A stretch of DNA of 64,000 bases from Escherichia coli. Its GTDB lineage: Bacteria > Pseudomonadota > Gammaproteobacteria > Enterobacterales > Enterobacteriaceae. This document shows, in pieces, positions 4,020 to 24,810 of this stretch (positions are counted from its first letter, which is position 1; each line of letters opens with the position of its first letter). The notes under the pieces were generated by a model. The model worked only from the letters and a program-made list of their open reading frames with translations. It ran no database searches and was not told the origin of the DNA. The DNA lies in NCBI RefSeq assembly GCF_030384885.1, contig NZ_CP128613.1; one strand, written 5' to 3'. Made by a program: the position numbers and the translations under genes.

Positions 4020-4289
4020 TTACACCTGCTCTTTATCGTGGCGCTTCGCGTCTTCTGTTTTAGCCTGTTCCTGATTCGTATCCGCCTGCTTATCGGCGAT
4101 AGTTTTCGCAGTAAAATCAGCATCCTGACTGGTTTTATCCTGCTTTGGTTCATCATCGCTCATTGCTTTTTTAAAGCCTTTGATCGACGCACCAAGATCG
4201 GAACCGATGGAGCCGAGCTTTTTGGTGCCAAAAAGCAGTACAACGATGACGGCAATAATCAATAACTGCCAAATACTGATACCACCCAT
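4020..4289 (-). CDS. tatA: Twin-arginine translocase subunit TatA
   Basis: ORF 4020..4331; start trimmed to Met15 ([27 protein letters not shown]...), giving the 89 aa TatA. Confidence 0.9.
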
Positions 4290-4367
4290 ACATGTTCCTC
4301 TGTGGTAGATGATGATTAAACAAGGCCGCATTATACGTTACACGGCCCGCCTTGAGCGATGAAAAAA

Positions 4368-6610
<2,243 letters not shown>

Positions 6611-6623
6611 TTCCGGTCTCCTG

Positions 6624-7379
6624 TCAGAACTTATAACCACGATGCAGCGCCACAACCCCTGCCGTCAGGTTGTAATAGTCGACACTTTCGAATCCAGCAT
6701 CCTGCATCATAGCTTTCAGGGTGTCCTGATCGGGATGCATGCGGATAGATTCAGCAAGATAACGGTAGCTGTCAGCGTCGTTCGCGACCAGTGAGCCAAT
6801 ACGCGGCAGCACATGGAAGGAGTAAGCGTCATAGGCCTTACTTAACGGCTCGATAATCGGCTTCGAGAACTCAAGCACCAGCAGTCGGCCGCCAGGTTTC
6901 AGAACGCGATACATTGAACGCAGAGCTTTATCTTTGTCAGTGACGTTACGCAGACCAAACGAAATGGTGATGCAATCAAAGGTGTTATCCGGGAACGGCA
7001 GCGCCTCAGCGTTCGCCTGAACATACTCAACGTTGCCAATCACACCAATATTACGCAGCTTCTCGCGGCCCATTTTGAGCATGGATTCATTGATATCAGC
7101 AAGGACCACTTTGCCAGTTTCACCCACCAGGCGGGAGAATTTCGCTGTCAGGTCGCCAGTACCGCCTGCCAGATCCAGCACGGTCTGCCCGCGGCGTACG
7201 CCACTGCAATCAATCGTGAAGCGTTTCCACAAACGATGTATGCCAAAAGACATCAAATCATTCATGACATCGTATTTCGATGCCACGGAATGGAAAACGT
7301 GGGCGACCATATCCGCTTTTTGTTCCTTCGCGACGGTCTGAAAACCAAAGTGCGTCGTTTCTTGTGACTTATCCACCAT
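6624..7379 (-). CDS. ubiE: Ubiquinone/menaquinone C-methyltransferase UbiE
   Basis: 251 aa [41 protein letters not shown]...; SAM-binding LDLAGGTGD motif. Confidence 0.95.
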
Positions 7380-7473
7380 CTCAATGCCTGCTCATCAAAA
7401 AATTGTTCCAGAAGTGTAACAGATTGGGCGTCGATGCCCTAGATTTCTACCCGGCTTAACTACCCCCAATGGG

Positions 7474-8901
7474 CTAGCGCGACTGCTGATTATATTCATC
7501 ATCGCGTTGATAAGCTTCATCATTCGGCTGCTCCGGTACCGACCGCAGTCGATACTCTTCATCCTGGCTCACCGCTTGTTCAGCCAAATCCGGATTAATC
7601 TCGCGTTTAATTTCTACTCCTAAACCGCGAAACGCTTCTGCCTGCGCCAGCACATTTCCGCGACCTGAAGAGAGTTTTTTCATTGCCTGGCGATAGTTGT
7701 CCTGTGCTTTGTCCAGACTTTGACCAATCGCGGACATATCATCGACAAACAAGCGCATTTTGTCGTACAACTTGCTGGCGCGATCGGCTATTTTCTGGGC
7801 GTTACGACTTTGATGCTCATAGCGCCAGAGGTTGGCGATAGTGCGCAGCGCCACCAGCAGCGTGGTCGGGCTAACCAGCATGATATTGTTTTTCAACGCT
7901 TCGGTGATCAGCTCCGGCTGGCGGTCAAGCGCCAGTAAAAAAGCGGGTTCAACGGGAATAAACATCAGCACGTAATCCAGGGTTCGCAGCCCCGGCAGCT
8001 GTTGATAATCTTTGCGTCCCAGCAAACGGATATGGTTACGCACCGACGCGATATGTTCCTGTAGCGCGCTTTCGCGGGTGTAGTCGTCTTCTGCGTTGAA
8101 ATAGCGTTCATAGGCGACCAGTGTCATTTTTGCGTCGATCACCACATCTTTGCCCTGCGGCAACCGCACGATGACATCCGGCTGCATCCGCGAGCGGGCG
8201 TCATTTTCGATGCTGACCTGGGTTTCATATTCATACCCTTCACGCAGACCGGAAGCCTCCAGCACACGCGTCAATACTACCTCGCCCCAGTTGCCCTGGG
8301 TTTTATTGTCGCCTTTCAGCGCACGCGTCAGGTTGATCGCTTCCTGGGCCATTTGCGCGTTGAGCTGCTGGAGATTGCGTATTTCGTGAGTCAGGGTATG
8401 GCGTTCTTGTGCTTCTTTACCGAAACTGTCCTGAACCTGACGACGAAAACCGTCCAGTTGTTCACGTAGTGGCGACAACAGGCTGTTCAGACTCTGACGG
8501 TTTTGCTCATCAACCCGGCGATTGCTGTGCTCGAAAATACGGTTGGCGAGGTTTTCAAACTGCTCACTGAGGCGCTGTTCGCTGTTGATCATTTGGCGAA
8601 TTTTATCGTCAGCATGTTGCTGTACGGCCTCCATTCGCGTGGTGACTTCACGCAGATCCGCCTCCAGCGAGGTGTTAATGCTTTGCAGACTGCGCACTTC
8701 ATTATTGAGTAACTCGCACTCAGCACGCCAATGTTCGCTTTGGGTAATTTGTTGTTTTGCCGCACTTAACTCCGCGATCATCTCTTCACGTTCAGCGAAT
8801 TGCTCGGCTTTTTGCTGCGCATGCTGATAACTGGCAATCAGCCAGCCAATCGCCACGCTCACCAACGCAATAACTGCGTAAACCATGATTGAGATATCCA
8901 C
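7474..8901 (-). CDS. rmuC: DNA recombination protein RmuC
   Basis: ORF 7474..8994; product trimmed to a GTG start (VDISIMVYAVIALV...) giving the 475 aa RmuC length; coiled-coil-rich N-terminus. Confidence 0.85.
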   Translation of the reverse strand: MDISIMVYAVIALVSVAIGWLIASYQHAQQKAEQFAEREEMIAELSAAKQQITQSEHWRAECELLNNEVRSLQSINTSLEADLREVTTRMEAVQQHADDKIRQMINSEQRLSEQFENLANRIFEHSNRRVDEQNRQSLNSLLSPLREQLDGFRRQVQDSFGKEAQERHTLTHEIRNLQQLNAQMAQEAINLTRALKGDNKTQGNWGEVVLTRVLEASGLREGYEYETQVSIENDARSRMQPDVIVRLPQGKDVVIDAKMTLVAYERYFNAEDDYTRESALQEHIASVRNHIRLLGRKDYQQLPGLRTLDYVLMFIPVEPAFLLALDRQPELITEALKNNIMLVSPTTLLVALRTIANLWRYEHQSRNAQKIADRASKLYDKMRLFVDDMSAIGQSLDKAQDNYRQAMKKLSSGRGNVLAQAEAFRGLGVEIKREINPDLAEQAVSQDEEYRLRSVPEQPNDEAYQRDDEYNQQSR

Positions 8902-9018
8902 AACGCCTCCAGCCTCATTACTTACCCGCACAAAATAGAATTGTGCTGTACAAACGTCCAGTTTGAAAGAAGTTTCCTGCGAGGCGCTACGCAAAACGAT
9001 CCTTAATTTTTATTATTT

Positions 9019-9056
9019 TATCCCACAATATGAGACGTAGTTTATATTGTGGGATA
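9019..9056. promoter_or_regulatory. 13-bp inverted repeat (TATCCCACAATAT / ATATTGTGGGATA) in the rmuC / IclR-gene divergent intergenic region; candidate operator
   Basis: Inverted repeat read directly from the sequence, about 60 bp upstream of the IclR-family gene start. Confidence 0.4.
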
Positions 9057-9113
9057 TATCACCTTTTCCCCACGTCATTATGTGGAACACTTCAGCAATA
9101 TCATCAGGAGAAA

Positions 9114-9884
9114 CGTATGGCAGATACCTCTTCAACCACCGCTGGCGCACAAACGTTATTACGCGGGCTGGCGGTTCTTAATGCTGTTTATAACGGCTGC
9201 CATGACCTGAAAAGTATCGGCGAGTTCACCGGCACGACCCGGAGCACAACCCATCGTTTAGTCACCGTTCTGGTGGAACAACGCTACCTGCGCCACGTCC
9301 CAACGCAGGGCTACCAACTGGGCGCCAAACTGATCGAATTCGGTGCCAGAGCGCTGGAAAGCACCTCGCTGTACGAAATTGCGCTGCCCGTTTTGCAGCG
9401 TCTGGCCCGTTACACCCTGGACACCGTGCATCTGGGGATCGTTGAAGGCGACGAAGTGCTGTATCTGGAGAAGATCAACAGTCAGCGTGGGCTGGAAATG
9501 CGCTCACGCCCAGGCCATCGCATGCCACTGGCAATCACCGGCATCGGCAAGGCATTGATCCTCAACCGAACAGAAGAAGAGTGGCGCACGCTGTTTAAGA
9601 CCTGTGGTGATGAAACAAAACTGGGCACATTTATTCAGAACATGCGTCGTTATGCCGCCAGTGGTTTTGCTTTTGATCTGGAAGAGAACGAGCCGACTAT
9701 CCGTTGCGTTGCAGCGCCGGTTTACAACGCCCGGGATGAAATTGTGGCGGCTATTTCTGTCGCCAGTACCACTACGTATATGTCACTGGCGCGTCTGGAA
9801 GAACTGGCACCTTACGTCAAATCCTGTGCAGAAGAGATATCCGCTGAACTGGGCTGGGGTAAGCACGTCCGCAAAAATAAATAA
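9114..9884 (+). CDS. IclR/KdgR-family transcriptional regulator
   Basis: ORF 9030..9884; start trimmed to MADTSSTTAGAQTLLRGLAVLNAV (RBS AGGAG upstream); N-terminal HTH plus IclR-type effector domain (about 256 aa). Confidence 0.8.
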   Translation, partial: RMADTSSTTAGAQTLLRGLAVLNAVYNGCHDLKSIGEFTGTTRSTTHRLVTVLVEQRYLRHVPTQGYQLGAKLIEFGARALESTSLYEIALPVLQRLARYTLDTVHLGIVEGDEVLYLEKINSQRGLEMRSRPGHRMPLAITGIGKALILNRTEEEWRTLFKTCGDETKLGTFIQNMRRYAASGFAFDLEENEPTIRCVAAPVYNARDEIVAAISVASTTTYMSLARLEELAPYVKSCAEEISAELGWGKHVRKNK

Positions 9885-9907
9885 ACCATGACTAAAGGAA
9901 ACGGCTA

Positions 9908-10912
9908 ATGTCGGGAAACACCTCATTTATTGCCCTGGACTGGGGAACGTCATCGCTTCGGGCATGGCGTTTTGGCGACTCACCAAATCCACAAGAAAAA
10001 CGTGAATTCCCGTGGGGGATCATGAAATTACCCTCCCAGGCAGCAACACGTGAGGACGCTTTCCACGATACGTTTTTACGTGTCTGCGGCGACTGGCTGG
10101 CACAATCCCCATGCCCGATTCTGGCTTGCGGCATGATCGGCAGTGCGCAAGGGTGGCAACCCGCAGCTTATTTACCTTGCCCGGTCACTCTCGAGGGTCT
10201 GGCAAAGCAGTTGACGCCTGTTATCTACCAGCAGCAGACAATGCTGCACATCATTCCCGGCGTGATTAAAGAAGGTGAAATGCCCGAAGTGATGCGTGGC
10301 GAAGAGACACAAATCTTCGGTGCTATCTCGATGGAACCGGCCCTGCAAAACGCGCTCCGCCAGGGTATGCCTGTGCTGATTGGCTTACCTGGCACACATG
10401 CGAAATGGGCGGTAGTTGAAAACAACACCATTACCGATTTTCGAACCTTTATGACAGGCGAGTTATTTGATGTTTTATCCCGCCATTCGATTCTCGGTGC
10501 CACCATGCGTTCGGGAGATGAACCGCACTGGGATGCCTTCGCCCACGGGCTGACAGCGGCACAAGAGCATCATCAGACCGGATTATTATCGACGCTGTTT
10601 TCGACCCGTTCGCGCCTGCTGACCAGTAATCTTACGCCGTCCTCACAGGGGGATTACCTTTCAGGATTACTGATAGGCCATGAATTATGCGGTCTGGCAT
10701 CCAGTTTGCTACGTGATTTACCCGCCACAACACCGATCGCCTTAATCGGTAGCGCCACTCTGAACAGCCGCTATTCACAAGCATTCAGCCACGTTTTTCC
10801 CGACAGACAGCTACACGCCATTCCTAATGCCACTGAACAGGGGTTATGGCGAATCGCCCACGCTGCCGGGCTACTCTCCACCAACGCCAGGGAATGTACT
10901 CATGCCATTTAA
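9908..10912 (+). CDS. 2-dehydro-3-deoxygalactonokinase (DgoK)-family sugar-acid kinase
   Basis: 334 aa; motifs ALDWGTSSLRAW, MRGEETQIFGA, GTHAKW...ITDFRTFMTGELF align with DgoK hallmark motifs. Confidence 0.8.
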   Translation: MSGNTSFIALDWGTSSLRAWRFGDSPNPQEKREFPWGIMKLPSQAATREDAFHDTFLRVCGDWLAQSPCPILACGMIGSAQGWQPAAYLPCPVTLEGLAKQLTPVIYQQQTMLHIIPGVIKEGEMPEVMRGEETQIFGAISMEPALQNALRQGMPVLIGLPGTHAKWAVVENNTITDFRTFMTGELFDVLSRHSILGATMRSGDEPHWDAFAHGLTAAQEHHQTGLLSTLFSTRSRLLTSNLTPSSQGDYLSGLLIGHELCGLASSLLRDLPATTPIALIGSATLNSRYSQAFSHVFPDRQLHAIPNATEQGLWRIAHAAGLLSTNARECTHAI

Positions 10913-11531
10913 TACGCTTTTGCAAAAAACCGGGTTAGTCGCCATTTTACGCGGCGTGAAACCGGATGAGATTGTCGCCATCGGTGAAAAGCTGTATGCC
11001 GCTGGATTTCGCCTGATTGAGATTCCCATGAACTCGCCGGAGCCGTTGCAAAGTATCAGTTTACTGCGCGACGCCCTGCCTAAGGACTGCCTGGTCGGAG
11101 CCGGAACGGTGCTTTCGGTGGAGCAAGTCGTCGCGGTTAAAGAGGCTGGAGGCCAGATTATCGTAATGCCGCATTGCGATACTGCGGTGATCCGTCGTGC
11201 CCGTGCGCTGGGTATGTATTGTGCGCCTGGCGTCGCTACGCCCACCGAAGCTTTTGCTGCCATTGAACATGGCGCCAATGCCATCAAGCTGTTCCCGGCT
11301 GAACAAATTACGCCTGAAGTCACCAAAGCCTGGCGTGCGGTTATTCCACAATCCGTTCCGATGTTACCGGTTGGCGGTATCACTCCAGACACAATGGCGC
11401 GTTATCTGAGCCACGGCGCAAACGGCTTTGGCCTCGGTTCTGCGCTATATCGCCCCGGCATGACGCCAGAGCAAGTCTATGAAAATGCAGTACTGTTTAT
11501 GAACGCATGGAACAATTTAAATAGCAAATAA
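10902..11531 (+). CDS. KDPGal/KDPG aldolase (DgoA/Eda-family)
   Basis: ORF 10827..11531; start trimmed to MPFNTLLQKTGLVAILRGV at 10902, overlapping the kinase stop (translational coupling); strong resemblance to DgoA. Confidence 0.8.
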   Translation: MPFNTLLQKTGLVAILRGVKPDEIVAIGEKLYAAGFRLIEIPMNSPEPLQSISLLRDALPKDCLVGAGTVLSVEQVVAVKEAGGQIIVMPHCDTAVIRRARALGMYCAPGVATPTEAFAAIEHGANAIKLFPAEQITPEVTKAWRAVIPQSVPMLPVGGITPDTMARYLSHGANGFGLGSALYRPGMTPEQVYENAVLFMNAWNNLNSK

Positions 11532-11555
11532 CTGATAAATAAGGATATAAAAGCA

Positions 11556-12530
11556 ATGATAAAACATCTTACCTTACCGAAAAAAATGGCTGCAATGGTA
11601 CTTCTTGCCGGCGCTGCCCTCAGCACTGCGCCTGTGCAGGCGGCCTCCTGGCCAACCAAACAGATCGAGTTAGTCGTACCCTACGCGGCCGGAGGCGGTA
11701 CGGATCTGGTTGCCCGTGCCTTTGCTGATGCCGCCAAAAACCATTTGCCCGTCAGCATCGGGGTTATCAATAAACCTGGCGGTGGCGGCGCTATCGGCCT
11801 GAGTGAAATCGCCGCTGCCCGCCCTAACGGTTACAAAATGGGTTTAGGCACGGTTGAACTGACCACCCTTCCCAGTCTCGGAATGGTGCGTTTTAAAACC
11901 AGCGACTTTAAACCCATTGCCCGTCTGAATGCGGATCCTGCGGCTATCACCGTCCGTGCCGATGCACCGTGGAATAGCTATGAAGAATTTATGACTTACG
12001 CCAAAGCGAATCCCGGAAAAGTACGCATTGGTAACTCAGGCACCGGAGCAATCTGGCATCTGGCGGCAGCTGCACTGGAAGACAAAACGGGCGTGAAGTT
12101 TTCTCATGTCCCATATGACGGCGCAGCCCCTGCCATTACAGGCCTGTTAGGCGGGCATATTGAAGCGGTTTCCGTAAGCCCAGGTGAAGTTATCAATCAT
12201 GTGAAAGGCGGCAAGCTGAAGACACTGGTAGTGATGGCGGATGAACGTATGAAAACCATGCCTGACGTCCCGACGTTAAAAGAGAAAGGCGTTGATCTCT
12301 CCATCGGCACCTGGCGCGGCCTGATTGTGTCGCAAAAAACGCCGCAGGATGTGGTTGATGTTCTGGCTAAGGCCGCAAAAGAGACGGCTGAAGAGCCTGC
12401 ATTCCAGGATGCTCTGCAAAAGTTGAATCTCAACTATGCATGGCTTGATGGTGCCAGCTTCCAGACCCAAATCAACGAACAGGAAAAGTACTTTGACGAG
12501 TTACTAACTCGGCTGGGCTTGAAAAAATAA
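11556..12530 (+). CDS. tctC: Tripartite tricarboxylate transporter substrate-binding protein (TctC/Bug family), periplasmic
   Basis: 324 aa with N-terminal signal peptide MIKHLTLPKKMAAMVLLAGAALSTAPVQA; TctC-like fold motifs. Confidence 0.8.
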   Translation: MIKHLTLPKKMAAMVLLAGAALSTAPVQAASWPTKQIELVVPYAAGGGTDLVARAFADAAKNHLPVSIGVINKPGGGGAIGLSEIAAARPNGYKMGLGTVELTTLPSLGMVRFKTSDFKPIARLNADPAAITVRADAPWNSYEEFMTYAKANPGKVRIGNSGTGAIWHLAAAALEDKTGVKFSHVPYDGAAPAITGLLGGHIEAVSVSPGEVINHVKGGKLKTLVVMADERMKTMPDVPTLKEKGVDLSIGTWRGLIVSQKTPQDVVDVLAKAAKETAEEPAFQDALQKLNLNYAWLDGASFQTQINEQEKYFDELLTRLGLKK

Positions 12531-12546
12531 TCCCGAGGTACGGTCG

Positions 12547-13053
12547 ATGAACACAAAACAGTCTGTTGCTCAACTCGCCGTACCGCACCGCAAGCGCTTT
12601 TCATCCACTGTGGTGGTGGCGCTGTTACTTTGTGTGGTTGCTGGCGCGGTGATAATTAATGCCGCTGATTTTCCAGCAACTGCCATTGAAACGGATCCCG
12701 GTGCAAGTGCCTTCCCTACTTTCTATGCCTGCGCTCTGATTGTGCTCGCTGTCTTACTGGTGATACGCGATCTTTTGCTGGCAAAACCAGTCCCTTGCGC
12801 CAACGCACAGGAAAAACCGGCATTCAGGAAAACGGCAACGGGAATTGCGGCAACCGCGTTTTATATTGTGGCGATGAGCTACTGCGGTTATCTCATTACT
12901 ACTCCTGTTTTCCTCATCGTCATTATGACGTTGATGGGCTACAGGCGATGGGTACTCACACCGGGTATTGCGCTGCTGTTAACGGCAATCCTCTGGTTGC
13001 TGTTTGTCGAAGCGTTACAGGTGCCATTGCCTGTCGGCACATTTTTCGAATAA
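12547..13053 (+). CDS. tctB: Tripartite tricarboxylate transporter small membrane subunit (TctB family)
   Basis: 168 aa, four hydrophobic segments; position between tctC and tctA. Confidence 0.7.
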   Translation: MNTKQSVAQLAVPHRKRFSSTVVVALLLCVVAGAVIINAADFPATAIETDPGASAFPTFYACALIVLAVLLVIRDLLLAKPVPCANAQEKPAFRKTATGIAATAFYIVAMSYCGYLITTPVFLIVIMTLMGYRRWVLTPGIALLLTAILWLLFVEALQVPLPVGTFFE

Positions 13054-13065
13054 CAGGGGCCTGCA

Positions 13066-14556
13066 ATGTTTGAAAGTGAACTTTTAACTCAGGGGTTTTC
13101 GACATTACTCAGTAATCCTCAGGCGCTGCTGTTTGCCACGTTTGGAGTGATACTGGGTATTATGATTGGCGCTCTGCCTGGCCTGACAGCGACCATGGGT
13201 GTGGCGATTTTGCTGCCTTTCACCTACGGCATGGAGCCTGTTTCTGGCTTGTTGATGATTTGCGGTGTCTTTTTTGGTGGTGTGTATGGTGGTTCTATCA
13301 CCGCAATTTTGCTCAAAATTCCCGGTACGCCTGCCGCCGCTGCCACCGCCATTGACGGTTATGAGTTAACGAAGCAGGGAAAAGCCGGGCTGGCATTAAG
13401 TGCCGCCACGTTCTCTTCTTTTAGCGGTGGAACGCTCAGCATTATCGTATTGATGTTTCTCTCTCCGGTACTTGCCAGTTGGGCGTTGAAATTTAGTGCC
13501 TCGGAGTCCTTCGCCCTGGCAACCTTCGGACTAAGTATTATTGCCAGTATTTCCGGTGAGTCACTGATTAAAGGGCTGATTGCCGGGGTTGGCGGATTAC
13601 TGATCGCAACGATAGGCCTCGATCCGATGGGCGGTTTTCCACGCTTTACGGGCGGGTTTGTGGAACTGATGAATGTGCCATTTATCCCGGTGATGATTGG
13701 TCTGTTTGCTGCTTCAGAAGCGTTCCGTTCTATGGAACAAAATCAGCATATTCGTCAGAGCGCGAACGTGGCTATCGGCAGTCTGTTACTGCCCTGGCAA
13801 ACGCTACGCCGCATCGCATTAACCATTTTGCGCTCATCAGGATTAGGGGTTTTTATCGGCATGATCCCCGGTGCGGGGGCAGATATTGCAGCTTTTGTTG
13901 CCTATAACGAAACTCGTCGTTTCAGTAAGACGCCTGAAAACTTTGGTAAGGGTGAGATTAAGGCGGTGGCCTCCTGTGAGGCAGGCGCGAATGGCTGCAC
14001 CGGTGGCGCATTGTTACCTATGCTGACGTTGGGGATCCCAGGCGATGCGGTAACTGCCATCATGCTGGGCGCGTTAACGTTACAAGGGATGCAGCCAGGC
14101 CCACTGATGTTTACCGACCACGGCGATATGGTTTATACGCTGTTTGTCGGCATGATCTTTTGTTACTTCATGCTGCTAGTTCTTGGACTGCTCTCTTTGA
14201 AAGTCATCGGTAACGTGGTGAAGATCCCCGGCAATATTCTCACGCCGATGATCCTCGCACTTTGTGTGGTCGGGACTTATGCGTTGAACAATAGCCTGTT
14301 TGATGTTGGCATTATGCTGATTGCAGGCGTGGTGGGCTATTTCATGCAAAAAGGGGGGTATCCGGCATCACCCGTAGTGCTGGCATTGATTATGGGGCCA
14401 ATGGCGGAAAGTAATTTTCGCCGTGCGCTGTCGCTTTCTGGTGGGTCACTCGACTTTCTGTATACCCGACCGATAACCCTGGCATTGCTGACACTGGCAG
14501 CCTTTACGCTACTGACGCCAATAATACGCAAAATTATGCGCTTACGGCGTCAGTAA
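13066..14556 (+). CDS. tctA: Tripartite tricarboxylate transporter large permease (TctA family)
   Basis: 496 aa polytopic membrane protein; TctA-like glycine-rich hydrophobic segments. Confidence 0.85.
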   Translation: MFESELLTQGFSTLLSNPQALLFATFGVILGIMIGALPGLTATMGVAILLPFTYGMEPVSGLLMICGVFFGGVYGGSITAILLKIPGTPAAAATAIDGYELTKQGKAGLALSAATFSSFSGGTLSIIVLMFLSPVLASWALKFSASESFALATFGLSIIASISGESLIKGLIAGVGGLLIATIGLDPMGGFPRFTGGFVELMNVPFIPVMIGLFAASEAFRSMEQNQHIRQSANVAIGSLLLPWQTLRRIALTILRSSGLGVFIGMIPGAGADIAAFVAYNETRRFSKTPENFGKGEIKAVASCEAGANGCTGGALLPMLTLGIPGDAVTAIMLGALTLQGMQPGPLMFTDHGDMVYTLFVGMIFCYFMLLVLGLLSLKVIGNVVKIPGNILTPMILALCVVGTYALNNSLFDVGIMLIAGVVGYFMQKGGYPASPVVLALIMGPMAESNFRRALSLSGGSLDFLYTRPITLALLTLAAFTLLTPIIRKIMRLRRQ

Positions 14557-14610
14557 TTGATATCGCTCCCCGACGTTGGGGAGTATGAGACTGATGACAA
14601 ACGCTAAATT

Positions 14611-14710
14611 GCCTGATGCGCTGCGCTTATCAGGCCTACCACAGAAATGCAATATATTGAATTTGCATGCTTTTGTAGGCCGGGTAAGGCGATCACGCCG
14701 CATCCGGCAT
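14611..14710. repeat. REP/BIME cluster (two inverted REP units: GCCTGATGCGCTGCGCTTATCAGGCCTAC ... GTAGGCCGGGTAAGGCGATCACGCCGCATCCGGCA)
   Basis: Characteristic enterobacterial REP palindromes read from the sequence. Confidence 0.6.
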
Positions 14711-14741
14711 GAACAAAGCACACGTTAACAACAATCGGAAT

Positions 14742-14768
14742 GCTCCCCTAAGCCAGGGAGCTTTTTTT
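14742..14768 (+). terminator. Hairpin (GCTCCC..GGGAGC) followed by T7 run; rho-independent terminator between the tct operon and the 3' end of udp
   Basis: Stem-loop plus U-tract on the + strand, immediately abutting the udp stop. Confidence 0.4.
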
Positions 14769-15531
14769 ATTTCAGCAGACGACGCGCCGCTTCCACCACG
14801 ATTTTCACCGCCTGGCTTTCGGTTTGTTTCATCGTCTCAGCATTCGGGATCTCTTGTTGGGTACGATTGACGATAACGCCCGCCACCATACCGGCACGAA
14901 GGCCCTGGCTTGCACACATGGTCAGCAGGGTTGCAGATTCCATTTCATAGTTCATTACGCCCATCGCCTGCCACTCTTCCATAGAACCTTTAAAGTGACG
15001 GACTACGCGACCAGAGTAAGTATCGTAACGTTCCTGACCCGGGTAGAAGGTATCAGAAGAAGCCGTCACACCAACGTGAGTGGTGGCACCAATTGACTTC
15101 GCCGCTTCAACCAGCGCGGTCGTACATTCGAAATCTGCGACAGCCGGGAACTCCAGCGGAGCGAAGTGCAGGCTCGCGCCATCCAGACGAACAGACGCCG
15201 TGGTCACCAGCACATCGCCGACATTGATATGCGGCTGGATAGCGCCCGTTGTACCGATACGCAGGAAGGTGCGAATGCCCAGCTGTGCCAGCTCTTCAAC
15301 CGCAATAGAGGTAGACGGGCCGCCGATACCGGTAGAGCAGACGATAACAGGTTTACCATCCAGCTCTGCACGCCAGGTGGTGAATTCGCGGTGAGATGCC
15401 AGCTTAACCGGCTTATCCATCAGCGCGGCGATCTTTTCCACACGATCCGGGTCGCCAGGGACGATGGCAAGCGTAGCCCCTTGTAAATCGTTTTTAGTGA
15501 GGCCGAGATGAAAAACATCAGACTTGGACAT
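14767..15531 (-). CDS. udp: Uridine phosphorylase
   Basis: ORF 14767..15537; start trimmed to [31 protein letters not shown] (253 aa). Confidence 0.95.
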
Positions 15532-15603
15532 ATACAACTCCTCTGTGAATCGGTTTAGTCAGAAGAAGCAAAAAGACACTTTACCGAAGGGTTTAACATT
15601 TTT

Positions 15604-15619
15604 TCGTGACACTCATCAC
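15604..15619. promoter_or_regulatory. CRP-like site (GTGA-N6-TCAC) in the udp promoter region, promoter-proximal
   Basis: cGTGAcactcaTCACc; spaced about 54 bp from the second site, consistent with the known tandem CRP arrangement of the udp promoter. Confidence 0.5.
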
Positions 15620-15657
15620 CTTGATGCAAATGCGTTGCATAAATTTACCCAGCAAAA

Positions 15658-15673
15658 GTGATGCGAATCACAT
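15658..15673. promoter_or_regulatory. CRP-like site in the udp promoter region, promoter-distal
   Basis: Reverse complement reads aTGTGAttcgcaTCAC. Confidence 0.5.
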
Positions 15674-15792
15674 AAATCACTCTTCATTCTGCATGACTGC
15701 ATAAAAGATGAGCCGATTCAGGCAATGTGATTTGTTGCATGCTGACTATAGTTAACATTGCGCAACATTTTTATAAGGGTACGGAGAATACC

Positions 15793-16605
15793 ATGGCAAC
15801 AACACAACAATCTGGATTTGCACCTGCTGCATCACCTCTCGCTTCGACCATCGTTCAGACCCCGGATGACGCGATTGTAGCAGGCATCACCTCTATCCCT
15901 TCACAAGGGGATAACATGCCTGCTTACCATGCCAGACCAAAGCAGAGCGATGGCCTACTACCAGTGGTCATTGTAGTGCAGGAAATTTTTGGCGTGCATG
16001 AACATATCCGCGATATTTGTCGCCGTCTGGCGCTGGAGGGGTATCTGGCTATCGCACCTGAACTTTACTTCCGCGAAGGCGATCCGAATGATTTTGCCGA
16101 TATCCCTACGCTGCTTAGCGGTCTGGTAGCAAAAGTGCCTGACTCGCAGGTGCTGGCCGATCTCGATCATGTCGCCAGTTGGGCGTCACGCAACGGCGGC
16201 GATGTTCATCGCTTAATGATCACCGGATTTTGCTGGGGTGGACGTATCACCTGGCTATATGCTGCGCATAACCCGCAACTGAAAGCGGCGGTGGCATGGT
16301 ACGGCAAACTGACAGGCGATAAGTCGCTGAATTCACCGAAACAACCTGTTGATATCGCAACCGATCTTAACGCGCCGGTTCTCGGCTTATATGGTGGTCA
16401 GGATAACAGCATTCCGCAGGAGAGCGTTGAAACCATGCGCCAGGCGCTGCGGGCTGCTAATGCGAAAGCAGAGATTATCGTCTACCCGGATGCCGGGCAT
16501 GCATTCAACGCCGATTATCGCCCGAGCTATCATGCTGAGTCGGCGAAAGATGGCTGGCAGCGTATGCTGGAGTGGTTTAAGCGGTATGGTGGGAAACGGA
16601 ATTAG
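15793..16605 (+). CDS. ysgA: Dienelactone hydrolase-family protein YsgA (DlhH)
   Basis: ORF 15727..16605; start trimmed to MATTQQSGFAPAASPLAS...; alpha/beta hydrolase motif GFCWGG. Confidence 0.85.
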   Translation: MATTQQSGFAPAASPLASTIVQTPDDAIVAGITSIPSQGDNMPAYHARPKQSDGLLPVVIVVQEIFGVHEHIRDICRRLALEGYLAIAPELYFREGDPNDFADIPTLLSGLVAKVPDSQVLADLDHVASWASRNGGDVHRLMITGFCWGGRITWLYAAHNPQLKAAVAWYGKLTGDKSLNSPKQPVDIATDLNAPVLGLYGGQDNSIPQESVETMRQALRAANAKAEIIVYPDAGHAFNADYRPSYHAESAKDGWQRMLEWFKRYGGKRN

Positions 16606-16996
16606 TTTCCTCTTATTCTATATTTGAGATGGTGAGTGAACGAATGCGTTTTGCTGCCATCTCTGTCCCCCAAAAAATAATCAGTATGAATTGATTGGAG
16701 AGCACGACTCCGCTATTTGACCTTAAGAAAGTCGGCAAGTCATAGTCATAAATGAGTCTCTTCACTGGCAGACACCTTAAAGATTTACCATCAACTCCCA
16801 TTCTCAAACAAACATTAATTATTATCAACACATTCACATTAATTATAAATTACCTCAGACCTTCCTGATAAAAAGATATTAAAGTGAAACATTTTGTTTT
16901 TCACATTTTAGTTCATCCCTTTTAGGCGTAAATAAAGGTAAAAAATAACAATACTATTTTTCTTTCACAAAAAAATTAACAAAAGGTTTTTCAAGG

Positions 16997-18145
16997 ATGA
17001 GTGATATTATCTACCTGACCATAACCGGAGAACAACACGGATGTATTTCCTCTCGTTGTGGAACGAGCACATCAATAGGTAATCGCTGGCAGATTGGTCA
17101 TGAAGATGAAATCTTCGCATTCTCGCTCTCTAATAGTATTACGAATACAGGAAAAGGGTCACATTTGCATGGCCTTAGTTTCTGTAAGTTGATTGACAAA
17201 AGCTCCCCGTTACTTATTAACGCTATTAACAATAACGAGCAGTTGTTCATGGAGTTTGACTTCTATCGGATCAATAGATTTGGTCGATGGGAGAAATATT
17301 ACAACATTCAACTCCGCGGCGCGCTCTTATCAGCAATCAATCACCTGTTTACGGAGAACAATCTGGATACAGAAACCATCACTGTCAGTTATGAATATAT
17401 ACTCTCCAGGCATCTGATTGCTAATACTGAATTTAGTTATTTGGCATTTCCCGATAACTACAATCGTCTGTTTATACCACGGCCAAAAACTAAAGATGAT
17501 AATGGCCTCAAAACACTCAATAGTAAAGCTGTTGGCAGACTGCTTGCTGCTGGCGGCATATACAATGGGAATATCGAAGGATTCAGGGAAACAGCAAACA
17601 AGTTGGGGGGAGATGCACCTGCTGGTTACGATCAAGTTATGGATAACAAAGGGTTACTCATCGCTGGTGCTTCAATAGTTGCTGGAGCAGTTCTGGGGAG
17701 AATGAGACTCCCTGATTTGGAATCACTTGAGCATTTCGGAGCCAGAGGAGCAGTATCAGGAAGACCATTTAATCCCGACCTTGCCGGTGGTCCAATAGAA
17801 AATCTGACGACAGATGGCGTAACAATCAACAGGGAAGGTATCGCTATTGTTGAAAAACACATAGCCAGATTTGGTCATGACCCTGTAAATGAAGTGATGA
17901 TCAATAGACTGAAAGACATTGAGAAAGGAAAAATCCCCCCAGAACAAGTAGATCTTAACTTCTATACTCATGAATGTCGGGAATATCAGCGTTACTGTAA
18001 TCTTGGTTGGGAAACAGGACAACCTGATGGTGACGCAGGCTATGCACTCTGGAATCATACGCATACTGCTACTCTAGAAGATTATAAACTTAAGGGAGAA
18101 CTTAATGACTTATACCACCAGGACGCACTTGACTATGATAACTGA
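16997..18145 (+). CDS. Hcp (T6SS tube protein TssD) N-terminal domain fused to a C-terminal extension of unknown function, Hcp-ET-like; not associated with a T6SS gene cluster
   Basis: 382 aa; residues 1-155 carry the Hcp hallmark ...HGLSFCKLIDKSSPLLINAINNNEQLFMEFDFYRI...; residues about 156-382 are an extension with no Hcp counterpart; RBS AAGGA upstream; AT-rich. Confidence 0.75.
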   Translation: MSDIIYLTITGEQHGCISSRCGTSTSIGNRWQIGHEDEIFAFSLSNSITNTGKGSHLHGLSFCKLIDKSSPLLINAINNNEQLFMEFDFYRINRFGRWEKYYNIQLRGALLSAINHLFTENNLDTETITVSYEYILSRHLIANTEFSYLAFPDNYNRLFIPRPKTKDDNGLKTLNSKAVGRLLAAGGIYNGNIEGFRETANKLGGDAPAGYDQVMDNKGLLIAGASIVAGAVLGRMRLPDLESLEHFGARGAVSGRPFNPDLAGGPIENLTTDGVTINREGIAIVEKHIARFGHDPVNEVMINRLKDIEKGKIPPEQVDLNFYTHECREYQRYCNLGWETGQPDGDAGYALWNHTHTATLEDYKLKGELNDLYHQDALDYDN

Positions 18146-18380
18146 AACTGAAATTAACATACTGAAAGTTATGGCTGAGAAAGATATAAACTGGAACTGG
18201 ATGAATCTCGATCGCACACTATCTATAAGGCAAATTCCAGGATTCGGTAATGTTGTTAACATTGTTAACAAATTAGCTAACGAGGGTTTGGTTATTATTG
18301 AGGATAGCGGACATAAGTCTATGCCTCACTACCACGTTACTGATAAGGGATACAATCTCGTGAAAAGTGAGAATAAATAA
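18105..18380 (+). CDS. Small protein overlapping the 3' end of the Hcp-fusion gene; candidate cognate immunity protein (alternative start at 18135)
   Basis: 91 aa ORF with GGGAG RBS; overlaps the upstream stop, typical of toxin-immunity pairs; no recognisable family. Confidence 0.5.
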   Translation: MTYTTRTHLTMITETEINILKVMAEKDINWNWMNLDRTLSIRQIPGFGNVVNIVNKLANEGLVIIEDSGHKSMPHYHVTDKGYNLVKSENK

Positions 18381-18528
18381 CGTAGCGTTGATTACTGAAC
18401 AAATCGCTCAGGATTATATTTTGCGAAAAAAATGATTCGGTTATTTCTGTGTCTGAACGGCCGCAGATAGCAAAATGGCTTCCGGTGATGGAAGCCATCA
18501 GATTATTGGCAAAGTGCGTGTTGTTCAT

Positions 18529-18559
18529 GCCGGATGCGGCGTGAACGCCTTATCTGGCC
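18529..18559. repeat. REP element (GCCGGATGCGGCGTGAACGCCTTATCTGGCC)
   Basis: REP consensus palindrome downstream of metE. Confidence 0.55.
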
Positions 18560-18666
18560 AACTAAATCTTGAAAATTCAATAAATTGAATAAATTATGTA
18601 GACTTGGTATCAGGCAGTTTTGCCTCTTTCATCGTACTGCAATTTACAGTGACTCGTTAATACTCA

Positions 18667-20928
18667 TCACCCCCGACGCAAATTCTGCGCCGCCTGCACC
18701 ATGTTCGCCAGTGCCGCGCGGGTTTCTGGCCAGCCGCGCGTTTTCAGACCACAGTCCGGGTTGACCCACAGACGCTCTGCCGGAATGCGTTTTGCCGCTT
18801 TCTTCAGCAGGGCTTCAATCCATTCCACGCTCGGTACGTTTGGCGAGTGAATGTCATAGACGCCAGGACCGATTTCATTTGGATAATCAAACTCTTCAAA
18901 CGACTCCAGCAACTCCATGTCGGAACGCGAGGTTTCGATTGTGATGACGTCTGCGTCCAGCGCCGCAATCGAATCCATGATGTCGTTGAACTCGCAGTAA
19001 CACATGTGAGTGTGGATTTGCGTGTCATCTTTCGCTACGGCAGCGTTGATACGGAAAGCCTCCACGCCCCACTGGAGATAGGCATCCCAGTCGCTGCGAC
19101 GCAGCGGTAAACCTTCGCGTAGCGCCGGTTCATCAATCTGGATGATGCCAATTCCAGCGGCTTCCAGATCGGCCACTTCATCACGAAGCGCCAGCGCAAT
19201 TTGTTTGGCGATGGTTTCACGGCTGACATCTTCACGCGGGAACGACCAGCAGAGAATGGTCACCGGGCCAGTCAGCATCCCTTTCACCGGTTTGTCGGTC
19301 AGCGATTGCGCATACTTTGCCCACTCCACGGTAATCGGTGCCGGGCGGCTAACGTCACCAATGACAATCGGCGGTTTCACGCAGCGGGAACCGTAGCTCT
19401 GTACCCAACCGTTTTGTGTAAAGACAAAACCGTCGAGGTGCTCACCAAAGTATTCCACCATGTCATTACGCTCGGCCTCACCATGCACCAGCACATCCAG
19501 ACCCAGACGTTCCTGCTCAACAATGGCCTGCTTGATATGTTCTGCAATGCCCGTACGATAGTTGTTGGCGTCGAGATTACCCTTTTTGAAATCCAGACGC
19601 AGGGTACGGATTTCTGTGGTTTGCGGGAAAGAGCCAATCGTGGTGGTCGGCCACGCGGGCAGTTTAAAACGCGCACGCTGGGCTTCAGCACGCACTTCAT
19701 AGACATTCGCACGCTGACTGTCCTGGGCGGTGATCGCCGCCAGACGCTTTTCTACTGCCGGATTATGTACACGAGTAGAGTGACGACGCGCCTGAATCGG
19801 TGCACTCCACTCTGCCAGAGCTGCCGTGTCACCACTGTTCAGCGCATCGCGCAGCAATGCCAGTTCATGGCATTTTTGCAGGGCGAAGGCAAACCAGCTT
19901 TTCACTTCTGCATCAAGACGCGTTTCCACGCTCAGGTCGATAGGGCTGTGCAGCAATGAGCAGGAAGATGCCACCCACAAATCACGTTTGCCGACAATGT
20001 CCTTAATTTGCGCATATTTCTCGGTAAGATCGGCGCGCCAGACGTTACGACCATTGATAAGACCCGCAGACAGCAGCCAGTCAGAAGGCAGACGCTTGTG
20101 CAGTTCAGCAACGTCATCTTTACCATGTACGAGATCGACATGCAGCCCCTGAACAGGCAGCGCAGTAATGGTGTCGAGGTTTGGCGTTACGCCTTCAAAA
20201 TAGGTGGTCAGCAGCAGTTTCACCTGGCCCTGGAGCGCGTCGTAAGCGGGTTTATAGGCGTCCAGCCACGCCTGCGGCAGTTCCAGCACCAGTGCGGGTT
20301 CGTCGATCTGTACCCACTCAATGCCACGTTTTGCCAGTTCTGCCAACACTTGCTGATAAACCGGCAGAATGTCGTTTAGCAGGCTCAGGCGATCAAACTG
20401 TTCACCTTTCACTTTACCCAGCCACAGGTAGGTAACCGGTCCCAGCAGCACGGGCTTGACCTTGTGGCCCAGCGCCAGCGCCTCGTCCACTTCCTCCAGC
20501 AGCTGCGTCCAGGTCAGTTTGAACTGTTGGCCTTTAACGAACTCCGGCACCATGTAGTGATAGTTGGTGTTAAACCATTTGGTCATTTCCGCTGCCGCCG
20601 CAGGTTCGCCAGTCGGCGCACGTCCACGACCAATACGGAACAGGGTGTCGATATCTACCGAACCATCTTTGTTCTGATGACGTGGCGGAACGTTACCCAG
20701 CAGCAGACTGGTGGTCAGTACATGATCGTACCAGGCAAAATCGCCCACCGGCAGCAGGTCGATACCCGCTTGCTTTTGTTGATCCCAGTGACGAGCACGC
20801 AGTTCACGCCCTACCGCCAGCAGTTCTTCACGCGTGGTGTTCCCGGCCCAATAACTCTCTTGCGCTTTTTTCAGCTCGCGACGCAGGCCAACGCGAGGGA
20901 AACCGAGGGTGTGATTCAATATTGTCAT
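18667..20928 (-). CDS. metE: Cobalamin-independent methionine synthase
   Basis: 753 aa [30 protein letters not shown]... Confidence 0.95.
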
Positions 20929-21163
20929 TTTTCTTCCTCTAATTATATGTAAATCCTATGGATTTTGAATTTAGGGAAGGCGGCAAGTTTATTCATCCCC
21001 GGGAGCTTACTGAAGTAAGTGACCGGGGTGAAGAAACGCAGCCAACGCACCATAAATTTAAAAGACGAAGGATTTTAGCCGTCCAGATGTTTACACATCC
21101 ATAATTGGCGGTTACTGTATATTCCTCAAGCGCAAATTATTCATGCCGAAGTGAAGGACTTTC

Positions 21164-22117
21164 ATGATCGAAGTAAAACACCTGAAAACGCTACAAGCGT
21201 TGCGGAACTGCGGCTCACTCGCAGCCGCTGCGGCGACGTTGCATCAAACGCAATCCGCCCTGTCTCACCAGTTTAGCGATCTGGAACAACGCCTTGGCTT
21301 CCGGCTATTTGTGCGTAAAAGCCAGCCGCTTCGGTTTACACCGCAGGGAGAAATCCTGTTGCAACTGGCGAATCAGGTGCTGCCGCAAATCAGCCAGGCA
21401 CTGCAAGCCTGCAATGAACCGCAGCAGACGCGCCTGCGCATTGCCATTGAGTGCCATAGCTGTATTCAGTGGCTGACGCCCGCGTTAGAAAATTTCCATA
21501 AGAACTGGCCGCAGGTGGAGATGGATTTTAAATCGGGCGTGACGTTTGACCCGCAGCCCGCGTTGCAGCAGGGTGAGCTGGATCTGGTGATGACCTCCGA
21601 TATTCTGCCGCGCAGTGGCCTGCATTATTCGCCGATGTTCGATTATGAAGTGCGTCTGGTGTTGGCACCTGACCATCCACTGGCGACAAAAACGCGAATC
21701 ACGCCGGAAGATCTCGCCAGCGAAACGCTGTTGATTTATCCGGTGCAGCGTAGCCGACTGGATGTCTGGCGGCATTTTCTTCAGCCCGCAGGCGTTAGCC
21801 CGTCACTGAAAAGCGTCGATAACACCTTGTTGTTGATTCAGATGGTTGCCGCGCGGATGGGCATCGCTGCGCTACCGCACTGGGTGGTGGAGAGTTTTGA
21901 ACGCCAGGGTCTGGTGGTCACCAAAACCCTGGGCGAAGGCTTGTGGAGCCGACTGTACGCCGCCGTGCGCGATGGCGAGCAGCGTCAGCCGATTACAGAA
22001 GCGTTTATTCGCTCAGCGCGCAATCACGCCTGCGATCATCTGCCGTTTGTGAAGAGCGCGGAGCGACCCACTTACGATGCACCCACAGTGAGGCCAGGAT
22101 CACCAGCGCGCCTGTAA
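21164..22117 (+). CDS. metR: LysR-family regulator MetR
   Basis: 317 aa [45 protein letters not shown]... Confidence 0.95.
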
Positions 22118-22904
22118 TAAACGTTGGCCAGTGCGGCTGTTGGTGCCAGATAGCCAGGTTAACCAACAGCCCTGCCGGAACGTGCATATTATTCATAATG
22201 CCCAGCGTTCCGGCGTCCACCTGAGTCGCGCCGTAGTTCCACATAAAGTAGCCAATACCGGAAGCCACCACGCCAAGAAACACCAGAATGCCCCATTGCA
22301 GCGTGGTTTGCGGCATTTTCTGCGCATTTCCCAGCAAGAACCATGCAATCACCGCCACCAGGAACGCGCCAAGATAGAACCACGCAAAGGCGTTATGCTG
22401 CGGCATCGGGCGAGTTTCCATCAGGCGTTTGTAACCCACCATGCCGATGGCAAAAGTGATATTGGAGAGTTGTACCAGTAACAGGCCGGTCCAGAAGTGG
22501 TCGGTGACCTGATCATAGCGAATAATTCCGGCACCAATCACCGCCAACAAGGCGCTAAAAGCATAGCCCCAGCGCAGACGGCGCTTACTCATGATGTCAT
22601 AAATCAGCGTGATGTAGAGCGGAGTCAGTACGGTGAACAGCAACAGCTCGGAGACCGTCAGGTAGAGATAGGCGCGAAAACTCAGCATATACATCACGCC
22701 AAGCTGCATCGCGCCCACCAGCATATACAGGCCAACCGTTTTCAGGCTATTGCCACGGGTACGCAGAAACGGCAGAAACACGAGTGCCGCCAGGCCAACG
22801 CGCACCAGCACTGCAAAATAGCTATCGACGTGCCCCGCAAGGTACTCGCCATAAAAGCTAAAGGAGAAGGCCCACAGAATCGTGGTGATGATAAGTAGCG
22901 CCAC
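22005..22904 (-). CDS. yigM: Biotin transporter YigM (BioP), EamA/DMT family
   Basis: 299 aa 10-TM protein; 3' end overlaps the metR 3' end convergently by 113 bp. Confidence 0.85.
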
Positions 22905-22979
22905 AATGGAAAACTCTTTGATTAACGAGTATCCATTGTAGCGAAGTATCAGGTTGACAACTGACCAAATAAAGAACGA

Positions 22980-23780
22980 TTACGATAAATAGAGTTTACG
23001 CAGATAATGCGGCACCGCGTCTTCGGCATTAGTACCAATCACTTCCAGCTCCGGATGCAGATCTTTCAGACGCTGGTGCGCACTGCCCATAATGCAGCCT
23101 TTACCTGCCATCGACAGCATTTCGGCGTCGTTCATCCCGTCACCAAAGGCAATACAATCTTTCAGACTGTAGCCCAGTTTCTTCGCCACCGCTTCCAGGG
23201 CATGGCCTTTTGAAACGCCGCCCGCCATCACTTCCAGACAAGTTAGGGTAGAGAAACTGACATTGACGCGATCGCCCCAACGAGCGTTGATTGCCTGTTC
23301 CAGCGGCAGCAGTTGTTCATGAGAATCACAGGTGAAGAACACTTTACTGACGCCTTCCGGATCCAGTAATCCTGGCTCATACAGCGCATACTTGAACACC
23401 GCTTCTTTAAAAAAGCGCATCTCTTCCGGGCGGTGGCGATTCATAAACCATTCGTCGTCGCGATAAACGTTAGTAATGATGTCCGGGTTGTCGTTGACCA
23501 CGCCAAACAGATCGCTGGCAATGTCGCGATCCAGGTTATGAGCAAAAATCAGATTGCCATCCAGATCGTGAACACGCGCGCCATTGGAGGTAATCATGTA
23601 AGACTTAATCTCCAGATTATCGCGAATTTGCCCTACATCAACGTGGTGGCGACCGGTCGCAAACACAAAGTTAATGCCGCGCGCGGTGAGGAGCTTCAGA
23701 GTTTCTTTGGCGTAAGGGGATAACGTATGGTCGGGAGAAAGTAACGTGCCATCTAAATCAGACGCAACAACCTGGTACAT
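22980..23780 (-). CDS. yigL: HAD-family phosphatase YigL
   Basis: ORF 22980..23906; start trimmed to MYQVVASDLDGTLLSPDHTL (266 aa; HAD DxDGT motif). Confidence 0.85.
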   Translation of the reverse strand: MYQVVASDLDGTLLSPDHTLSPYAKETLKLLTARGINFVFATGRHHVDVGQIRDNLEIKSYMITSNGARVHDLDGNLIFAHNLDRDIASDLFGVVNDNPDIITNVYRDDEWFMNRHRPEEMRFFKEAVFKYALYEPGLLDPEGVSKVFFTCDSHEQLLPLEQAINARWGDRVNVSFSTLTCLEVMAGGVSKGHALEAVAKKLGYSLKDCIAFGDGMNDAEMLSMAGKGCIMGSAHQRLKDLHPELEVIGTNAEDAVPHYLRKLYLS

Positions 23781-23787
23781 AAGAAAT

Positions 23788-24810
23788 TTAAACCTCTGTA
23801 GAGCGGTTTCCGCTGGGTGAGTTATGCCTGTTGAAAAAATCAACAATGGCGTGGAGCGCGACTGAGCGCATTGCGTCCTTTTCAAAAAGGATCTCATGGT
23901 ACGCACCTTTAATTACCAGCGGTCGTCCTCCTTCGACAGGATGGCCCGCAGCGGTGCGGAGTTCACAAAAACGGTCGTGCATGCGGTTATCCACCACGCG
24001 TTCCTCTTCAGCCTGCAAGAGAAGCGTTGGCGTGGCGTCATCACCCGCACCGGCTAACACCTGTTCGCCAGCCAGAATACTTTCGCGTACCCAATGGTAG
24101 GTCGGCCCACCGACGCGAATCGTTGGGTCATCAGCATAGAAGCGTAAGTTACGTCGATATCGCTGTCTGCTGTGGGTCAGTACGTTGATAGCAAACGGCA
24201 ACGCGCGCCAGCGCCCGGTGCCTATTGCATAGCCATCACGGAAACGTGGATGTGCTTCGGCCCAGTTAAGGATCTGCCGCGCCATAAATGACGGCATACG
24301 AATCACGATCCCAAACATTGGTGCAGTTAGCGCAATGGCGTCACATACACCTGGATGGCGTTGCAGAAATAACGTGGAGATCGCACCGCCCATCGAATGT
24401 GCCAGTATATAGCGCTTACGCCACGGACCGGGCTGGACCTCCTGTTGCCAGAATGCCGCCAGATCATCAACATAATCATTGAAGCGATTAACATGCCCAA
24501 GATGCGGATCGGCTAACAGGCGACCGGAACGTCCCTGCCCGCGATGGTCGATGATTAAGACATCAAACCCCAAATGGAACAGGTCGTAGGCCAGTTCCGC
24601 ATATTTTACGTAGCTCTCAATACGCCCCGGGCAGATGACTACCACCCGGTCATGGTGCTGTGCGCGAAAACGGACAAAGCGCACCGGAATGTCATCTACA
24701 CCAGTAAACTCTGCTTCATCACGCTGACGCCAGAAATCAGTCAGCGGTCCCATGGTAAAAGCAGCAAACGCGTTTTCTCTTGTTTCCCAGTCTTTTTGCT
24801 GCTGAAACAT
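23788..24810 (-). CDS. pldB: Lysophospholipase L2
   Basis: 340 aa MFQQQKDWETRENAFAAFTMGPLTDFWRQRDEAEF...; lipase GHSMGG motif. Confidence 0.9.
   Translation of the reverse strand: MFQQQKDWETRENAFAAFTMGPLTDFWRQRDEAEFTGVDDIPVRFVRFRAQHHDRVVVICPGRIESYVKYAELAYDLFHLGFDVLIIDHRGQGRSGRLLADPHLGHVNRFNDYVDDLAAFWQQEVQPGPWRKRYILAHSMGGAISTLFLQRHPGVCDAIALTAPMFGIVIRMPSFMARQILNWAEAHPRFRDGYAIGTGRWRALPFAINVLTHSRQRYRRNLRFYADDPTIRVGGPTYHWVRESILAGEQVLAGAGDDATPTLLLQAEEERVVDNRMHDRFCELRTAAGHPVEGGRPLVIKGAYHEILFEKDAMRSVALHAIVDFFNRHNSPSGNRSTEV

Follow-up and report, generated by a model that had tools for sequence, protein, structure and literature searches.

The 261-bp gap (window positions 15532–15792) that separates udp from the divergent gene ysgA in the Escherichia coli DNA analysed here, a stretch of 64,000 bases that we call the window, very probably holds the orthologue of the characterized E. 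coli udp promoter, a CRP–CytR–CRP module of the CytR regulon. This identity follows from the alignment of the gap with its K-12 counterpart without a single indel, from the unchanged CRP half-sites and from the CytR operator lying between them. The control region is thus already known, an ordinary characterized promoter with a few natural base changes. What is said below of protein binding, of where transcription starts and of how udp is regulated in this strain is presumed by extension from the sequence or from the literature on K-12. The features of the locus are the following:

14767–15531, minus strand: udp, encoding uridine phosphorylase (254 amino acids), with its ATG at 15531; so named in a RefSeq record identical over this region.
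15538–15543, minus strand: Shine–Dalgarno sequence GAGGAG of udp, 6 nt upstream of the ATG at 15531, read from the sequence.
15578–15583, minus strand: putative −10 hexamer TAAAGT of udp, read from the sequence and from class II geometry.
15602–15623, minus strand: proximal CRP site (CRP-1), CAAGGTGATGAGTGTCACGAAA in the udp sense, centred at 15612.5, with an exact GTGA-N6-TCAC.
15623–15641, minus strand: CytR operator, composed of the distal half-site TATGCAAC (15641–15634), the spacer GCA and the proximal half-site TTTGCATC (15630–15623).
15654–15675, minus strand: distal CRP site (CRP-2), TTATGTGATTCGCATCACTTTT in the udp sense, centred at 15664.5, the top matrix score in the window.
15723–15744, minus strand: weak CRP-like and CytR-like element on the ysgA side, CAGCATGCAACAAATCACATTG, containing the octamer CATGCAAC; 5.2 bits with the CRP matrix.
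15793–16605, plus strand: ysgA, dienelactone hydrolase family, divergent from udp, from the RefSeq annotation; K-12 orthologue b3830.

Annotation was taken from E. coli 2013C-4282 (NZ_CP027579.1), a genome with 100% identity to the window over 9000–15793. The ysgA start codon at 15793 is borne out by the codon-position pattern of substitutions. The udp product matched the Pfam family PNP_UDP_1 (E = 1.9e-40) and differs from K-12 Udp by H240Q and one extra C-terminal lysine, nothing else, while 32 of the 33 nucleotide differences between the two udp genes fall at third codon positions; the gene is under purifying selection, as judged from these sequences. The window itself contains neither crp nor cytR; an intact cytR (341 codons, 1026 nt) is encoded in NZ_CP027579.1.

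An exact search of the window for GTGANNNNNNTCAC returned two matches, at 15606–15619 (GTGACACTCATCAC) and 15658–15671 (GTGATGCGAATCAC). An earlier note on this DNA had placed two GTGA-N6-TCAC motifs upstream of udp within 15604–15673, and both matches do lie inside that range and are the only two in the 64 kb. Their centres, 15612.5 and 15664.5, are found 81.5 bp (proximal) and 133.5 bp (distal) upstream of the udp ATG; they are separated by 52 bp, or five helical turns, rather than by the approximately 54 bp that the note had given, and 30 bp remain between the two 22-bp sites. Shuffled sequence is expected to yield 0.78 matches to GTGANNNNNNTCAC per 64 kb, and two per window were found in 16 of 100 shuffles, so the number of matches is unremarkable as a count. 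A pair of matches no more than 100 bp apart has an expectation of about 0.001 (an estimate from the shuffle rate), which makes the 52-bp pair unusual.

The note had proposed CRP and CytR matrix scans together with an alignment to the characterized udp promoter. For CRP we used a symmetrized 22-bp matrix with approximate scores, built from 20 classic sites of the standard compilations; its consensus came out as the accepted AAATGTGATCTAGATCACATTT, and the training sites themselves scored between 3.5 and 19.0 bits (median 14.2). The distal site, which is also the sole one-mismatch match to TGTGA-N6-TCACA in the window, scored 15.5 bits (15.5–16.0 by strand scored) and ranked first of 63,979 positions; the proximal site, at about 10.6 bits, ranked sixth of 63,979, both being within the range of known sites on this matrix. 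In 300 dinucleotide shuffles the distal score was reached in 20%, the proximal score was reached about 6.5 times per window, i.e. the proximal site alone does not score above chance in this comparison, and a CRP-like pair at a spacing of 40–65 bp arose in 5 of the 300. By itself, the matrix evidence is supportive but modest. As matrix statistics alone do not prove function, orthology to the K-12 promoter was used as the deciding evidence.

The gap aligned ungapped with the udp–ysgA region of K-12 MG1655, with 254 of 261 positions identical and seven substitutions. The two regions share the locus, the divergent order of udp and ysgA and the length of the gap, all four CRP half-sites and their 52-bp centre spacing, a CytR operator with a 3-bp half-site spacing, and an identical core promoter, leader and Shine–Dalgarno sequence. 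Each CRP spacer has one substitution, as do the proximal CytR half-site and the CRP-1 flank, and the remaining three lie between or upstream of the sites. The distal site thus departs from its K-12 orthologue (TTATGTGATTTGCATCACTTTT) at one spacer base, and the proximal site has an A-to-G change in its spacer and another change in its flank; matrix scores in the window were slightly below those of K-12 for both (16.0 versus 17.2 for the distal and 10.5 versus 10.95 for the proximal site). All seven substitutions are located within 15610–15694; the 70 udp-proximal and the 98 ysgA-proximal base pairs have none.

This alignment also bears on whether the two palindromes might be functionless chance matches. 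Such a reading could appeal to the shuffles, in which single matrix scores of this size and windows with two exact matches (16 of 100) are both found, but it is scarcely credible for matches that lie 52 bp apart, are both intergenic and flank a published CytR operator, that are orthologous to experimentally characterized sites, and whose half-sites do not vary among E. coli haplotypes, unlike the spacer bases beside them. On the grounds of orthology and conservation we exclude it.

Between the CRP sites the sequence reads GTAAATTTATGCAACGCATTTGCATCAAGGTG, and here lies the CytR operator (15623–15641), which the earlier note had not pointed out. The claim of the note that this is the known two-CRP-site architecture for CRP/CytR control of udp is supported by the operator and by the identical CRP half-sites. 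In a scan against the octamer consensus GTTGCATT, the distal half-site had one mismatch and the proximal half-site two, both lying between the CRP sites. Structural work has used the natural CytR operator of K-12 udp, GTAAATTTATGCAACGCATTTGCGTCATGGTG, in which 3 bp separate the two octamer half-sites (bioRxiv 10.1101/2021.02.28.433298). Relative to the published 32-mer, the window carries two changes. One (GCG to GCA) affects the proximal CytR half-site, inside the operator; the other (T to A, window position 15621) falls just beyond it. The former turns the TTTGCGTC of K-12 into TTTGCATC and restores the central TGCA of GTTGCATT; the K-12 proximal half-site falls outside the two-mismatch threshold of the octamer scan. 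The proximal half-site of the window abuts the CRP-1 22-mer, in accordance with the rule that a CytR operator sits no more than 5 nt from a CRP operator (PMC3454398).

The same layout is known from the other tandem-CRP promoters of the CytR regulon, i.e. deoP2, nupG, tsx, cdd, ppiA and rpoH, in which CytR likewise has an asymmetric operator between two CRP sites and represses by anti-activation (PMC3454398). The promoters differ in the spacing of their CytR half-sites (0 bp in deoP2, 3 bp in udp and 9 bp in nupG; bioRxiv 10.1101/2021.02.28.433298) and in their use of CRP, activation reportedly involving one CRP site at udp, where two serve in repression, and two at nupG, tsx and cdd (PMC3454398). 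For udp, a distance of 30–31 bp between the CRP sites is conserved in Enterobacteriales and Vibrionales (PMC3454398), and the 30 bp of the window agree with this value.

With respect to the core promoter, the plausible −10 (TAAAGT) and class II geometry (15612.5 minus 41.5) would put the udp start near 15571. The CRP centres would then lie at −41.5 and −93.5; we take the published positions of the udp CRP sites to be about −41 and −93. CRP-1 overlaps the −35 position, whose sequence (CGAAAA) is poor. A sigma-70 consensus scan of 15480–15850 found no consensus-like promoter, a result that is uninformative for activator-dependent promoters. The missing sigma-70-like promoter, the poor −35 and the overlap with CRP-1 would fit a class II CRP-dependent promoter. 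An RNA-element reading of the gap was dropped, as an Rfam search (E ≤ 1) returned no family there.

In K-12, cAMP–CRP alone activates udp, CytR bound cooperatively with CRP represses it, and cytidine frees CytR (PMC3454398). If the module of the window works in the same way, a cAMP–CRP dimer would occupy the proximal site (15602–15623) at high cAMP and, overlapping the weak −35, would activate polymerase in class II fashion, with a second CRP dimer on the stronger distal site (15654–15675) five helical turns upstream. A CytR dimer on the operator within the 30-bp gap would touch both CRP dimers and mask the CRP surfaces that polymerase requires, thus acting by anti-activation. Binding of cytidine to CytR would break the CytR–CRP contacts and bring back CRP-dependent transcription of udp.

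The CRP sites, above all the distal one, might also or mainly serve ysgA, making the gap a shared bidirectional control region. The distal centre precedes the ysgA ATG by 128.5 bp, about as much as it precedes the udp ATG (133.5 bp), and the 98 bp on the ysgA side, completely conserved in eight E. coli haplotypes, include the weak CRP-like and CytR-like element at 15723–15744, unchanged in all eight, whose octamer CATGCAAC has a single mismatch to the CytR consensus. We nevertheless regard control of ysgA as improbable. The third element scores only 5.2 bits and may be a chance match, consensus scanning revealed no ysgA promoter, ysgA is not among the nine listed members of the CytR regulon (PMC3454398), and the geometry fits udp exactly, with the CRP centres at −41.5 and −93.5 as set from the plausible −10.

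Beyond ysgA, an intact 382-amino-acid ORF (16997–18380) matches Pfam Hcp (T6SS_HCP) at residues 6–135 only and has a C-terminal extension of approximately 245 amino acids; from its sequence it looks like an Hcp–toxin fusion. It is followed by a 91-amino-acid ORF with no Pfam match, which could be an immunity gene. The pair is located in the ysgA–metE interval, which measures 39 bp in K-12. The Hcp gene carries the label 'tssD, frameshifted' in NZ_CP027579.1 and is shorter there by 1 nt; the window and that record are thus not identical in the strict sense.

Of 5426 complete E. coli genomes, 5425 contain the gap and its module. The 83-bp module is identical to that of the window in 17 genomes, 95–99% identical in 82 and 90–95% identical in 5324. 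Eight haplotypes spanning this range of identity were aligned, among them K-12, EDL933 and strains that have or lack the islet-type udp; since they were chosen by divergence in the module, the contrast between the module and its surroundings is biased. No indels occurred among them. The CRP half-sites and the distal CytR half-site were invariant in all eight, as were the core promoter (100% identical, including the putative −10 stretch) and the ysgA-proximal 98 bp, and the leader held a single change, one base beside the udp ATG, in one strain. Variable positions were confined to the CRP spacers, the stretches between sites and the proximal CytR half-site (TTTGCATC, TTTGCGTC or TTTTCGTC). Both flanks of the gap appear to be under strong constraint, the coding divergence of about 4% notwithstanding.

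The allele of the window is rare. By exact 30-mer counting among the 5426 genomes, the haplotype of the window occurs in 18, TTTGCATCATGG in 146 and the haplotype of K-12 in 3161; the intergenic allele was found at ≥ 99% identity in 18 of the 5426. As to the proximal CytR half-site, 3161 of these genomes carry the K-12 type and 164 the TTTGCATC types, most of the rest having other types. The neighbouring core genes of the window are about 4% different from K-12. Core blocks flanking udp (window 4234–23980) showed 96.5%, 95.7% and 96.2% identity to K-12. Taken together, this suggests an uncommon and deeply branching E. coli lineage as the source of the window.

Such a rare allele raises the question of whether the module, while functional, has had its set-point shifted in this lineage, towards tighter CytR repression or altered induction relative to K-12. 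In this allele the TGCA core is back in the proximal CytR half-site, and the spacers of both CRP sites, whose matrix scores are slightly lower, are changed; five of the seven gap substitutions fall inside the 74-bp module (6.8%) and none in the 70-bp core promoter and leader; and the haplotype is found in only 18 of 5426 genomes, as against 3161 for that of K-12. Against the background divergence of about 4%, however, drift at unconstrained positions could account for five changes in 74 bp, and the changes may be neutral ones in spacers. CytR also has a low intrinsic DNA specificity, CytR–CRP contacts dominating the formation of the complex (PMC3454398), and its isolated DNA-binding domain favours the operator only about fourfold over nonspecific DNA (bioRxiv 10.1101/2021.02.28.433298). 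A shifted set-point is therefore unlikely in our judgement. We hold it similarly doubtful, if conceivable, that the module is a natural hotspot of regulatory polymorphism in which the better, TGCA-containing proximal CytR half-site of the rare allele could set a different threshold for udp induction by nucleosides. If this were true, selection would act on the strength of the CytR operator, with the CRP half-sites and core promoter staying fixed.

On the other side of udp, an islet of approximately 5.8 kb (about 8997–14768) separates rmuC from udp. It stands in place of 43 bp of K-12 sequence, the terminator hairpin of K-12 udp included; the match to K-12 is lost one base past the point at which K-12 udp has its stop and is regained 96 bp upstream of rmuC. 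The window differs from K-12 in having an extra Lys codon in udp and the islet in place of the terminator. Being at the 3′ end of udp, the islet leaves the promoter untouched, so the earlier statement that the insertion had left it intact holds, if trivially. The CRP cores are the same in genomes with and without the islet.

The islet encodes an IclR-family regulator, a 2-dehydro-3-deoxygalactonokinase, a KDPGal aldolase and a TctC/TctB/TctA tripartite tricarboxylate transporter, and is present in 1452 of the 5426 complete E. coli genomes, the ST131-type copy being only about 96% identical. At its edge (14742–14772), the udp end reads CTGCTGAAATAA versus CTGCTGTAA in K-12, with the Lys codon added before the stop. 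A hairpin beside the udp stop (14742–14761) has its T run on the plus strand and no T tail in the udp direction, and on account of this T run is read as the terminator of the tct operon. REP-like palindromic elements are found at 14610–14720, on the udp-side edge of the islet, where Rfam matches to two REP-derived families, naRNA4 and ES036, stayed below threshold at 14632–14714. At the opposite end, a perfect 12-bp inverted repeat (ATCCCACAATAT ... ATATTGTGGGAT; 9028–9066) lies upstream of the islet IclR-type regulator gene. The second-best CRP matrix score in the window (9045–9066, 14.6 bits) falls in this repeat, which is more plausibly the operator of the IclR-type regulator itself than a CRP site.

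As the orthologue of the K-12 promoter, the module matters little beyond its correct annotation. The natural variation of the proximal CytR half-site may offer a small test set for the respective contributions of CytR–DNA and CytR–CRP contacts, and udp keeps its textbook CRP/CytR control region despite the adjoining 5.8-kb islet.
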